64,000 nucleotides of DNA from Alphaproteobacteria bacterium (GCA_020846275.1 JADLEG010000031.1:10556-74555), one strand, 5' to 3'. Counted from the stretch's first letter, positions 24,418-27,524 are shown. Notes: generated from the sequence alone by a model not told the origin. Numbers and translations are program-made.

Positions 24418-24849
24418 ATGATGACCATCCCCGACACCCGGCCCTACGCGCGGGCGCTTGACCGGCTGAAGGCCGTTGGACTGCGGCCGACCCGCCAGCG
24501 CCTTGCCTTGGCGAAGCTGCTGTTCGACGGCGCCGACCGGCACGTCTCGGCCGAGCAGCTTCATGCCGAGGCGGTGGCGGCCGAGATGCGCGTCAGCCTG
24601 GCGACGGTCTACAACACGCTGCACCAGTTCACCGCGGTGGGCCTGCTGCGCGAGGTGGTGGTCGAATCCGGCCGCGCCTATTTCGACACCAACACCACCA
24701 ACCACCACCATTTCTATCATGCCGAGGACGGCAAGCTGGTGGACATCGACCACAGCCGCTTGAGCGTCGCCGCCCTGCCGGAACCGCCGGCGGGCACCGC
24801 GATCGACCGCGTGGATGTCATCATCCGGGTGCGCGGCCATCAATCGTAA
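24418..24849 (+). CDS. irr: iron response regulator Irr (Fur family, HHH motif)
   Basis: Fur-fold protein with the TNHHHFYH motif characteristic of Irr. Confidence 0.8.
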   Translation: MMTIPDTRPYARALDRLKAVGLRPTRQRLALAKLLFDGADRHVSAEQLHAEAVAAEMRVSLATVYNTLHQFTAVGLLREVVVESGRAYFDTNTTNHHHFYHAEDGKLVDIDHSRLSVAALPEPPAGTAIDRVDVIIRVRGHQS

Positions 24850-24898
24850 CGCTGATCTGTCAGCGCCCTAATAAACTTTCTACAACAATTCTAATCTA

Positions 24899-24928
24899 TT
24901 GACACGAAGCGTGCCGGGCGCCTATAGA
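24899..24928 (+). promoter_or_regulatory. candidate sigma-70 promoter of rubrerythrin (TTGACA-N18-TATAGA) with adjacent TTCTA direct repeat
   Basis: -35 TTGACA at 24899-24904 and -10 TATAGA at 24923-24928. Upstream sequence CTTTCTACAACAATTCTAATC resembles Irr ICE half-sites. Confidence 0.4.
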
Positions 24929-25037
24929 GTGGCGCGAGGCGACGGCGAACTTGGCTTGCCGGTACGTCGCTTCGCGAACAACGCATCGTTGGGGTGATTT
25001 CCCGCGATCGGCCGCGGGATCCAAGAGGAGACGAAAA

Positions 25038-25457
25038 ATGACGGCGCTGAAGAACAGCAAGACGGAAAAGAACCTGAAGGACGCGTTCGCCGGCGAAAGC
25101 CAGGCCAACCGCCGCTACCTGTATTTCGCCCAGAAGGCGGACGTCGAAGGCTACAACGACGTCTCGGCCGTGTTCCGGTCGACCGCCGAAGGCGAGACCG
25201 GCCACGCCCATGGCCATCTGGAGTTCCTCGAGCAGACCGGCGACCCGGCCACGGGCCTGCCGATCGGCTCGACCGCGCAGAACCTCAAGGCCGCGATCGC
25301 CGGCGAGACGCACGAGTACACCGACATGTACCCGGGCATGGCGCGCACCGCGCGCCAGGAAGGCTTCGACGAGATCGCCGACTGGTTCGAGACCCTGGCG
25401 AAGGCCGAGAAGTCCCACGCCGGCCGGTTCCAGAAGGCCCTCGACACGATCGGCTGA
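25038..25457 (+). CDS. rubrerythrin
   Basis: ATG at 25038 after AAGAGGAG. Ferritin-like diiron motifs (E...[10 protein letters not shown], ExxH). The track ORF from 24951 is an extension. Confidence 0.85.
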
Positions 25458-25480
25458 TGCCTGTCTGCCGCGCGTCGGAC

Positions 25481-25507
25481 GCCGGCATTCCCCCGCGGAA
25501 TGCCGGC
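25481..25507 (+). terminator. perfect 11 bp GC hairpin downstream of rubrerythrin, no U-tract
   Basis: GCCGGCATTCC-CCCGC-GGAATGCCGGC. Confidence 0.3.
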
Positions 25508-25582
25508 GCCGCCTGCGCCTTGAGCCGCGCCCGCTCATCGCTTTAGGGGGTCCCTTTCAGGAAGGGGCCGGGAATTGCCGAC

Positions 25583-26914
25583 ATGCGTGAAGGAAGCCTG
25601 GACGCGCCGGTGCGTCATCCGCTGGGCTGGGACCGGCCGGATTTCTATGACGAGGCGAAGCTCGACGCCGAATTGCATCGCGTGTTCGACATCTGCCATG
25701 GCTGCCGGCGCTGCTTCAATCTCTGCGACAGCTTTCCGCGGCTGTTCGACCTCGTGGACAACGCGCCGACCGGCGAGCTGGACAGCGTCGACAGCAAGGA
25801 CTTCAAGCAGGTCGTGAACGCCTGCACGCTGTGCGACATGTGTTTCCTGACGAAGTGCCCCTACGTCCCGCCGCACGAATTCAATCTCGACTTTCCGCAC
25901 CTGATGCTGCGCTATCGCGCCGTCGAGCTGCGCAAGCACAAGGTGCCGCTGGCGCAGCGCCAGCTCACCGAGACCGACCGCAACGGCAAGCTGGCGTCGC
26001 TGGCGCCGGCGATCGCCAACTGGGCGTCGCAGACCGGCAACGCGGTGACGCGCCCGCTGATGGAGCGCGCGCTGGACGTCGATCGGCGGGCCAAGCTGCC
26101 GAAGTTCCATGGCCGCACCTTCGCGCTGCGCGCCAAGGCCGAGCCGCCGACGATCAACGCCGGCGCGCCGGGCTTCGGGCGCAAGGCCGTGCTCTACGCC
26201 ACCTGCTTCGTCAACTACAACGGGCCGGACATCGGCATGGCGGCGCGCGCGGTGCTGGCCCGCAACGGGGTCGAGACGGTGGTCGCCTATCCCGGCTGCT
26301 GCGGCATGCCGCAGCTCGAGCACGGCGACCTCGCGCGCGTGGCGTCCAACGCGCGTACGGTCGCGGCCGGGCTGAAGGAATACATCGACAAGGGCTTCGA
26401 CATCATCGCGCTGGTGCCGTCCTGCGCGCTGATGCTCAAGTTCGAATGGCCGCTGATCCTGCCGGGCGACGAAAGCGTCAAGCGGCTCTCTGCGGCCACC
26501 TTCGACCTGTCCGAATACGTGGTCGACATCGCCAAGCGCGAAGGCCTGGCGGATGGGCTGCGCGCGATCGACGGCGGTGTCAGCCTGCATATCGCCTGCC
26601 ACGCACGCGCCCAGAACATCGGCCAGAAGGCGGCCGAGATGCTGCGGCTGATTCCCGGCGCCGACGTCGCGGTGATCGAACGCTGCTCTGGCCATGGCGG
26701 CTCGTGGGGCGTGACGAAGGAGAACTTCGACGTGGCTGTGAAGGTCGGCAAGCCGGTCGCGCGCCAGGCGATGAACGCGGCCAAGGCGCATCTCGCCTCG
26801 GAATGCCCGCTGGCCGCCGACCATATCGCCCAGGGCGTCGAATTGCTGGGGGGCACGCCGCCCGTGCCCGAGCACCCGATCCAGATCTTCGCCCGCGCCT
26901 ACGGGCTGGCCTAG
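25583..26914 (+). CDS. CCG-domain (Fe-S)-binding oxidoreductase (GlpC/HdrD/GlcF-like)
   Basis: Two 4Fe-4S Cys clusters ([28 protein letters not shown]) plus Cys-rich CCG repeats (PGCCG..., PSCALM). Confidence 0.75.
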
Positions 26915-26927
26915 GCCGACGGAGGCC

Positions 26928-27524
26928 ATGTTGACGATGGAAAAGCGCGCGATCACCCGGGCCGACGTGATGTCGATGGCGGACTACGCCAAGGTCCGCA
27001 CCGAACGCCGCCGCGCCCTGATCCAGACCAAGAAGCTGCGCCGGCTCGAGATCGGCCCCTGCGCCTGCTTCTATTTCGAGAGCTACGAGACGATGTGGAT
27101 ACAGGTCCACGAGATGCTCAGGATCGAAAAGGGCGGCGAGGAACAGATCCCCGACGAACTGCGCGCCTACAACTCGCTGATCCCCCAGGGGCGCGAGCTG
27201 GTGGCGACGGTGATGTTCGAGGTCGACGATCCGGTGCAGCGCGCGCATCTCCTCGCCCGGCTGGGCGGGGTCGAGGATGCGATCTTCATCAGCTTCGCCG
27301 GCGAGACGGTCATGGGCCGGCCGGAGGCGGACATCGAGCGTACCAACGACGAGGGCAAGACCTCGTCGGTCCACTTCATCCATTTTTCCTTCAGCCCGGC
27401 GCAGATCGAGAAGTTCCGCGCCGCGGGCACGCAGGTCATCGTCGGCTTCAAGCACGCGGATTACGGACACATGGCCGTGATGCCCGAGCCGGTGCGCGCC
27501 GAGCTGGCGAAGGATTTCGCTTGA
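26928..27524 (+). CDS. DUF3501 family protein
   Basis: Called by recall of the DUF3501 family and its usual linkage to rubrerythrin/GlpC-like genes; no catalytic motif recognised. Confidence 0.6.
   Translation: MLTMEKRAITRADVMSMADYAKVRTERRRALIQTKKLRRLEIGPCACFYFESYETMWIQVHEMLRIEKGGEEQIPDELRAYNSLIPQGRELVATVMFEVDDPVQRAHLLARLGGVEDAIFISFAGETVMGRPEADIERTNDEGKTSSVHFIHFSFSPAQIEKFRAAGTQVIVGFKHADYGHMAVMPEPVRAELAKDFA

Follow-up and report, generated by a model that had tools for sequence, protein, structure and literature searches.

A predicted Irr box abuts the promoter of an aerobic-type rubrerythrin operon downstream of irr in Rhodospirillales-like bacteria

How is a rubrerythrin that lacks the rubredoxin domain controlled, and what supplies it with electrons? 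The question is raised by positions 24418-27524 of a 64,000-nt stretch of an Alphaproteobacteria bacterium genome (JADLEG010000031.1:10556-74555; the whole stretch is called the window here), where the gene for an Irr-type iron response regulator is followed by genes for a rubrerythrin (RBR), an Fe-S protein with CCG domains (RFO) and a DUF3501 protein. We favour, with a probability of roughly 0.65, the reading that this is a Rhodospirillales-type aerobic rubrerythrin system with a cis-encoded Irr repressor, in which RFO and DUF3501 replace the rubredoxin domain. Judged by conservation across related genomes, Irr very probably controls rbr-rfo-DUF3501 through a conserved operator, an iron control element (ICE, or Irr box) located immediately upstream of the rbr promoter.

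The four genes all lie on the plus strand: irr (24418-24849) encodes a Fur-family iron response regulator of 143 aa, rbr (25038-25457) an aerobic-type, rubredoxin-less rubrerythrin of 139 aa with a di-iron four-helix bundle, rfo (25583-26914) a GlpC/HdrD-like Fe-S protein with Fer4 and CCG domains, and the last gene (26928-27524) a DUF3501 protein of 198 aa (PF12007, 192 bits). The gaps between them are 188, 125 and 13 nt. A sequence-only reading of this DNA had named the same four proteins in the same direction; the open reading frames are placed as it had them, and Pfam and NCBIfam profile scores, compared with the curated cut-offs, agree with the identities. The linkage that it proposed is also conserved. 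Species-representative genomes scanned with the RFO protein gave 80 loci at 65-80% identity (L001-L080), from a Rhodospirillales-like clade that includes Reyranellaceae, Stellaceae, Dongiaceae, Azospirillum, Kiloniellaceae, Pelagibius, Oceanibaculum and others. Gene order was read by tblastn, and 74 of the 80 loci have enough upstream DNA to be informative for counts of irr and the ICE. In 71/74, irr lies immediately upstream of rbr-rfo-DUF3501, co-directional with rbr and at a gap of 112-388 nt. The exceptions are L024, where irr is 3 kb upstream, and L073 and L075, two metagenome-assembled genomes labelled as Rhizobiales with no irr nearby. The order rbr-rfo-DUF3501 is kept wherever the locus is long enough, and a DUF3501 match follows RFO in 79/80 loci; the remaining one (L007) ends about 110 nt past RFO. 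The layout is found in cultured relatives as well, namely Azospirillum canadense, A. agricola, Oceanibaculum pacificum and Pelagibius litoralis.

A search of both strands with the published ICE consensus TTTAGAANNNTTCTAAA, which has 14 specified positions, at up to 3 mismatches gave one match in the 64-kb window, where 0.03 are expected. This 17-bp element, TCTACAACAATTCTAAT, occupies 24879-24895 and agrees with 11 of the 14 positions specified in the consensus. It is composed of a left arm TCTACAA, a central CAA and a right arm TTCTAAT, and it corresponds to the palindrome TTTRGAAYNRTTCYAAA with the right arm almost perfect and the left arm degenerate (TTTAGAA to TCTACAA, by T2 to C and G5 to C). 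The element is contained in CTTTCTACAACAATTCTAATC (24876-24896), which the sequence-only reading had taken for a TTCTA direct repeat that resembles ICE half-sites and overlaps the rbr promoter. The resemblance to the ICE stands. The direct repeat does not: alignment with the 76 orthologous sites shows a complete inverted repeat in which the left arm has drifted, and the direct repeat is only apparent, because of a G5-to-C change that, among these sites, the window shares with L001, its nearest relative, and with no other. Nor does the element overlap the promoter; it abuts the -35 box from upstream, outside the promoter core. The rbr promoter itself (24900-24929, plus strand) was correctly described as TTGACA-N18-TATAGA, with the -35 box TTGACA at 24900-24905, starting about 3-4 nt downstream of the ICE end, and the -10 box CTATAG/TATAGA at 24923-24929. 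A simple promoter scanner made no call at this promoter because the -10 box does not end in T, but both hexamers are present at conserved spacing in ~70 orthologous loci. From their positions we infer a transcription start near 24936, which would place the ICE at about -57 to -41, with its centre near -49, and leave a 5´ untranslated region of ~100 nt. An Rfam scan of 24200-27900 at E <=1 returned zero matches, and thus no known riboswitch or small RNA in this leader.

The architecture of ICE, -35 box and -10 box is conserved. In 69/74 loci the best ICE match in the 300 nt ahead of rbr has at most 3 mismatches, versus 0.28 expected from shuffled upstream regions. Sites with at most 2 mismatches number 44 in the rbr upstream regions versus 2 in the remaining 784 kb. 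Positions T3, A6, T12 and A15 are invariant across the 76 sites of an ICE-anchored alignment. In the 75 loci in which the spacing to the -35 box was counted, the gap ranges from 0 to 7 nt; it is at most 6 nt in 73 of them, and in 52 the ICE is followed by exactly 3 nt and then TTGAC. A CTATAT-like -10 box follows 15-18 nt past the -35 hexamer, whereas the remainder of the irr-rbr spacer has fully diverged among the loci. Such phylogenetic footprinting, in which the hexamers are kept at a fixed spacing, supports the promoter call. The Irr operator predicted here by the sequence-only reading likewise gains from the unique match in the window and its orthologous counterparts. The ICE is also kept in L024 and L073, in which irr is not adjacent, and this fits a trans-acting factor.

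The same arrangement precedes other genes. Metagenome contigs were searched for the exact composite TTAGAANNNTTCTAANNNNTTGAC (ICE, 4 nt, TTGAC), and at least 120 stretches were recovered (L081-L200). The composite leads to an aerobic RBR gene in at least 60 stretches, and in at least 52 of these it is preceded on the same strand by irr or an irr-like gene. It leads to katG in at least 13 (at least 11 with such a gene; e.g., L116, L128 and L164) and to a Prx5-type peroxiredoxin gene in at least 6 (at least 4; e.g., L083, L087, L115 and L123). At least 12 stretches have Nfu/NifU and at least 3 have mbfA or VIT1 (MbfA in L092 and L134) behind the composite, and for these two classes no upstream irr or irr-like gene is found among the matches listed, to which the following figures also apply. 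The remaining stretches are too short or unclassified. In the 10 katG contigs with a callable upstream open reading frame, the Irr-like frame ends 6-48 nt before the ICE; in the peroxiredoxin contigs, which have a G+C content of 0.26-0.30 and which we take to be SAR11-like, it ends 1-36 nt before. Across uncultured alphaproteobacteria the distance from irr to the composite is ~1-300 nt. The katG composite is found in marine lineages of low G+C content and also in at least one contig of high G+C content (L135). Four representative Irr-like proteins from the metagenomes have IrrA and Irr as their best NCBIfam models, at IrrA scores of 126-140 bits that are below the cut-off, and carry HHH or HYH motifs. 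A layout of irr, an ICE at the -35 box and a peroxide scavenger thus recurs with three unrelated enzymes.

The regulator in the window is well defined as an Irr. It scores 210.3 bits with NCBIfam IrrA (cut-off 150) and 185.8 bits with Irr (cut-off 170), above both equivalog thresholds, and it matches Pfam FUR. Residues 95-97 form an HHH haem-binding motif, with a conservation of at least 90% among 73 orthologues. The protein has zero cysteines and no Cys-Pro haem regulatory motif, and CP occurs within the first 45 residues in only 1/73 orthologues. Because HHH is present and both the Cys-Pro motif and cysteine are absent, the protein is, by sequence, of the Rhizobium type and not of the Bradyrhizobium type. 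PerR was rejected as its identity, the best PerR model reaching 73 bits against a cut-off of 250 and no cysteine being available for a Cys4 zinc site. After the Irr models, its best scores are nevertheless with PerR models (73 and 62 bits), above the Fur models. In anaerobes, PerR controls rbr. A Fur-family regulator is encoded within the rbr operon of Nitratidesulfovibrio vulgaris (PMC12154734), as irr is found beside rbr in the window. The pairs differ in that the window Irr lacks the structural Zn(Cys)4 site and is predicted to sense haem through HHH instead, and in that its rubrerythrin is of the rubredoxin-less aerobic type.

RBR matches only Pfam PF02915 (110 bits) and has no rubredoxin domain. 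Its best relatives in the PDB are Burkholderia pseudomallei Rbr (4di0/9onm, 243 bits) and sulerythrin (1j30, 180 bits), and the 4di0 and 1j30 proteins are named members of the aerobic-type rubrerythrin group (PMC5114695). The locus has the other features of that system, a ferritin-like di-iron domain alone and directly downstream, co-directional genes of the DUF3501 and COG0247 types. A classical rubrerythrin was rejected, the NCBIfam model RuberyRbr giving 142.8 bits against a cut-off of 200 and being covered only at positions 1-145 of 194. Translation of rbr from ATG 25038 is preceded by the Shine-Dalgarno sequence AGAGGAG (25024-25030), 7 nt upstream; TTG 24951 was rejected as the start on account of this sequence and of the alignments with PDB homologues, which begin at residue 1 of the protein translated from ATG 25038.

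RFO has Pfam PF02754 (CCG) and Fer4_17, although Pfam calls the first CCG domain only. Two ferredoxin-type [4Fe-4S] motifs (C38/41/44/48 and C81/84/87/92) are followed by two reduced CCG domains (C208/239/240/281 and C339/368/408), and among 118 homologues 15 cysteines are at least 99% conserved, 14 of them invariant. HdrB/HdrD-type CCG proteins have two CX31-39CCX35-36CXXC motifs with 10 cysteines and two non-cubane [4Fe-4S] clusters; RFO, with 4 and 3 conserved cysteines in its CCG domains instead of 5 and 5, was rejected as a member of this type. The succession of two ferredoxin-type motifs and two CCG-type domains is shared with GlpC, HdrD and GlcF, GlpC being the nearest named family. In contrast to these proteins, RFO has no glpA/glpB, hdrE or glcD/E partner nearby; its neighbours are irr, rbr, the DUF3501 gene, a nitronate-monooxygenase (NMO)-like gene and PhyH. 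A GlpC identity was rejected at 196.7 versus 278 and 111 versus 279.9 bits, and because of these sub-cut-off scores and the missing glpAB partner, the database name “glycerol-3-phosphate dehydrogenase subunit C” is, judged by profile, an over-annotation. A sequence search of the PDB with RFO found no relative. The DUF3501 protein is predicted, at a pLDDT (predicted local distance difference test) of 93, to have a helical N-terminal part packed on a beta-sandwich; an adaptor role would fit this fold better than an enzymatic role, though it proves nothing. The DUF3501 start codon ATG 26928 lies only 4 nt past GGAGG (26919-26923), and the in-frame ATG 26937 is better spaced. The latter may be the true start and would make the protein 3 residues shorter; some homologues have 195 aa. 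The system is very abundant in aerobic bacteria, with more than 7000 homologues of each protein returned.

The model that we propose has two transcription units. irr would be transcribed from its own, probably leaderless, promoter, and rbr-rfo-DUF3501 from a sigma-70-type promoter with the ICE abutting the -35 box. When haem, iron and peroxide are all low, Irr bound at the ICE would occlude the -35 box and the upstream contacts of RNA polymerase and keep the operon low. Irr would be inactivated by haem, iron or peroxide; binding of haem at HHH, probably reinforced by oxidation, would release it and allow expression. The di-iron RBR would then reduce H2O2 or organic hydroperoxides, and RFO would supply electrons, perhaps from quinol, a thiol or a reduced cofactor, by way of the site in its CCG domains and its two [4Fe-4S] clusters. 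DUF3501, which has a beta-sandwich and no catalytic relatives, could link RFO to RBR as an adaptor. The pair of RFO and DUF3501 would stand in for the rubredoxin domain of classical rubrerythrins.

Several observations weigh against this model, and they concern the operator of the window, the direction of control and the electron supply. As regards the operator, the window ICE is among the weaker sites, with its 3 mismatches and a C at position 5, where 68/76 sites have G. Moreover, part of the irr-rbr adjacency is plain inherited synteny: in much of the clade the genes are embedded in a block of pnp, the NMO-like gene, irr, rbr, rfo, the DUF3501 gene and an SH3-like gene on the minus strand, and pnp and the NMO-like and SH3-like genes are conserved too. 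One could propose that the operator has decayed in this genome, that the operon is constitutive or controlled by OxyR or a second Fur-family protein, and that the adjacency of irr reflects synteny only. The drifted left arm, the C5 shared with L001 alone, against a symmetric partner C13 in 73/76 sites, and the synteny of the whole neighbourhood from pnp to the SH3-like gene would agree with decay. We find it highly improbable all the same, as the window retains the four invariant positions and the right arm, and its offset between ICE and TTGACA is the modal one. There are 26 other loci that likewise carry 3 mismatches, and the spacer yielded no further regulatory motif and no Rfam element. 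Fur-family dimers are known to tolerate one weak half-site.

The direction of control is less easily settled. Irr activates or represses according to the location of the ICE (PMC7762939 and the main text of PMC1698941), and a centre near -49 is a typical activator position. Irr bound upstream of the -35 box could thus recruit RNA polymerase and turn the operon on when haem and iron are low, in which case rubrerythrin would guard iron-starved cells against the failure of their haem catalases and Fe-S defences. In 73/75 loci the ICE is outside the core promoter, on its upstream side, and Bradyrhizobium Irr activates from an ICE upstream of the promoter, according to the same two sources. In Pelagibacter, rbr mRNA increases 1.57-fold under iron limitation, the opposite of what simple Irr repression predicts (PMC2864753). 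Activation nevertheless appears unlikely to us. A Fur-family dimer ~3-4 nt from the -35 box should occlude the contacts of sigma region 4 and of the C-terminal domain of the RNA polymerase alpha subunit, and a gap that varies from 0 to 7 nt suits occlusion but is poor for activation that depends on a specific face of the helix. Two lineages have the ICE inside the promoter, with TTGACA located 3-5 nt upstream of the ICE and the Irr box in the promoter spacer and -10 region (L003, ~4300-4330; L043, ~1715-1745); by its sequence layout this is the classical geometry of a repressor. RBR and RFO are iron-rich, and in every species tested the genes for proteins of this kind are repressed by Irr when iron is low (PMC3413700; PMC1698941, main text). 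The haem-dependent katG is found behind the same layout, and its induction would be pointless when haem is lacking.

The closest experimental precedent also argues for repression. In Rhodobacter sphaeroides, the Irr box of ccpA is ~40 nt upstream of the mapped 5´ end and binds Irr in vitro, and ccpA is ~2-fold higher in an irr mutant under low iron, a weak repression (Peuser et al. 2012, PMC3413700). The likeness to rbr consists in an Irr box upstream of the start and a peroxide-reducing target. The enzyme is different, irr is not adjacent, and the ccpA case has been tested by experiment whereas that of the window rbr is known from sequence alone. By contrast, the 5´ end of R. sphaeroides mbfA maps inside its Irr box and not downstream of it as predicted for rbr (PMC3413700). 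On these grounds we prefer repression.

The third set of objections concerns the electron supply. For ferriperoxin, a rubredoxin-less relative, ferredoxin:NADPH reductase serves as the reductant in vitro with neither RFO nor DUF3501 present (PMC3317640), and Thermoproteales have RBR and DUF3501 but no RFO (PMC5114695). By analogy with these cases, RFO may not be an obligatory donor. A more radical alternative is that the triad is not mainly a peroxidase, but a ferroxidase or iron-buffering protein with its reductase, or a di-iron oxidase that uses RFO and DUF3501, so that control by Irr would amount to iron homeostasis. The Pelagibacter rubrerythrin is annotated as a putative ferroxidase (PMC2864753), B. 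pseudomallei Rbr is promiscuous in its metal binding and accepts Fe, Mn and Co (PMC12154734), and CCG-domain proteins normally serve dehydrogenases (GlpABC, GlcDEF and Hdr, by their NCBIfam names). MbfA, a confirmed Irr target with an erythrin domain, exports iron, and mbfA and VIT1 genes carry the composite promoter described above. In Bradyrhizobium, MbfA (blr7895) is an erythrin-VIT1 iron exporter encoded by a classical high-affinity Irr-repressed gene, and it shares with the window RBR the PF02915 domain and an ICE in the promoter. However, RBR has no VIT1 membrane domain and scores only 17 bits with NCBIfam MbfA (cut-off 450).

We regard such a non-peroxidase function as quite improbable, since the characterised rubredoxin-less relatives are peroxidases. 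Ferriperoxin is required for aerobic growth (PMC3317640), and sulerythrin is a peroxidase according to the work cited in PMC12154734. Rubrerythrin is induced by oxidative stress in B. pseudomallei (PMC12154734) and in Magnetospirillum gryphiswaldense its level in oxic cells exceeds that in anoxic cells 2.1-fold (PMC9549626). The alternative genes behind irr and the ICE, katG and the peroxiredoxin gene, both encode peroxide scavengers, and comparison of the related loci found no dehydrogenase partner gene conserved in the cluster.

The recurrence of the layout before scavengers also bears on the signal. Because peroxiredoxin, one of the three targets, contains no iron, a peroxide or haem signal is favoured over iron sparing. 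In lineages with small regulons, Irr looks functionally PerR-like, as far as gene arrangement and operator sequence can tell. One could go further and suppose that Irr, encoded in cis, is fundamentally a PerR-like regulator of peroxide scavengers and not a regulator of iron economy, a tentative idea that seems to us somewhat more doubtful than convincing. If it were true, the large iron regulon of Rhizobiales would be a later expansion, and the rubrerythrin triad, which mitochondria inherited as well, would be a peroxidase system gated by haem.

Much of this has been anticipated. The combination of RBR, RFO and DUF3501 was described as the “aerobic-type rubrerythrin system” by Cardenas, Quatrini and Holmes in 2016, who named RFO and found the three together in 185 genomes (PMC5114695). 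The families co-occur almost exclusively, and DUF3501-RFO fusions are known (PMC5114695). All three proteins are targeted to mitochondria in several lineages of protists (Gray et al. 2020, PMC7050145). For Rhodospirillum rubrum, Magnetospirillum and Pelagibacter, Rodionov et al. (2006, PMC1698941, main text) predicted a minimal Irr regulon consisting of a rubrerythrin-like protein or ccpA. The triad and the control of rubrerythrin by Irr have thus both been published already as computational predictions, and the locus is a further example of the aerobic rubrerythrin system and of the Irr/ICE regulon. With the former it shares the three families, their order, a rubredoxin-less RBR, an RFO of the COG0247 type and PF12007; the structural genes show no difference, and PMC5114695 names no Irr or other regulator. 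With the latter it shares Irr and the palindrome upstream of rubrerythrin in a Rhodospirillales-like genome, whereas the main text of Rodionov et al. does not describe the irr-rbr adjacency, RFO and DUF3501 as members of the regulated operon, or a fixed geometry of ICE and -35 box (PMC1698941). These three features, shown here in ~70 genomes, were not found in the main texts searched. The sequence-only reading had held the role of the CCG protein and DUF3501 to be not established, which agrees with a 2025 preprint that still only hypothesises an electron-transfer partner (PMC12154734). The thiol-linked role that the same reading had allowed for the module is speculative.

As a single instance, the locus adds little that is new, since the triad and its control by Irr were already predicted in the literature. 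Its interest lies in an operator and promoter that are now precisely defined and phylogenetically footprinted, and in the cultured relatives, which offer a cleaner experimental system. Such a system could settle whether Irr represses or activates from a position near -49, and which signal is read by an Irr with essentially a one-operon regulon. How RFO and DUF3501 supply electrons to a rubredoxin-less rubrerythrin is a question with reach, these proteins being abundant in aerobic bacteria and present also in mitochondria of several protist lineages.

The promoter of irr is found at 24380-24409 (plus strand), with a -35 box TTGACT, an 18-nt spacer and a -10 box TATATT (10/12 matches in the scan). 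The -10 box ends 8 nt ahead of the irr ATG, there is no Shine-Dalgarno sequence, and the mRNA is probably leaderless or nearly so because of this short distance. A cATAtA box is seen by eye ~8-11 nt before the irr ATG in many orthologous loci, which suggests leaderless translation of irr across the clade. CTATAT, TATATT and CCATAT are each enriched upstream of irr (16-18/73 loci versus ~2 expected). The top-enriched hexamer in the 120 nt upstream of irr is part of TTCCAA(A/G), which resembles the ICE half-site TTCYAAA; TTCCAA is present in 20/73 regions versus 1.7 expected, a count that is inflated by the kinship of the loci. In the window, TTCCAAG occurs at 24391-24397, in the promoter spacer between -35 and -10. 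This word could be a half-site for autoregulation or the site of another factor. It is half-site-like and was rejected as a full ICE. Autoregulation through a full ICE was rejected as well: upstream of irr in the window there is no site with up to 3 mismatches, and among the related loci only L072 has a strong ICE, ~300 nt before irr.

Within the operon, fold prediction places a GC-rich hairpin with a 12-bp stem in the rbr-rfo spacer (25480-25508, plus strand), whose stability is no better than that of shuffles (z = -0.84). A weakly supported suggestion is that it may act as a partial terminator or mRNA stabiliser and give more RBR than RFO and DUF3501. A terminator scan gave 3 matches versus 2.4 expected, i.e., chance level, with none between the four genes. 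Directly past the DUF3501 stop codon there is a REP-like (repetitive extragenic palindromic) mosaic of inverted and tandem repeats (27535-27691), consisting of nested inverted repeats of 21-26 nt and a 33-nt tandem repeat in two copies. Its core, CGTCTCGAAGGATGAGGA, has 6 copies in the window versus 0.04 expected and is also found at 43987-44101 and 57896-57913. The mosaic is likely to be the 3´ boundary or terminator region of the operon.

The flanking genes include the NMO-like gene mentioned above (22936-24333, plus strand). It encodes a 465-aa protein with a weak nitronate-monooxygenase match (PF03060, E = 2e-7) and a Cys-rich C-terminal extension (CMGCLSAC), and it is kept between pnp and irr in 27 related loci, with no sign of membership in the rubrerythrin unit. 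On the other side, a PhyH-family dioxygenase gene and a gene of the arylmalonate-decarboxylase/Asp-Glu-racemase family lie on the minus strand (27709-29438), between the DUF3501 gene and the SH3-like gene. The window shares these two genes with L001, its nearest relative, and with no other of the 80 related loci, and they are therefore a lineage-specific insertion beside the REP-like element.

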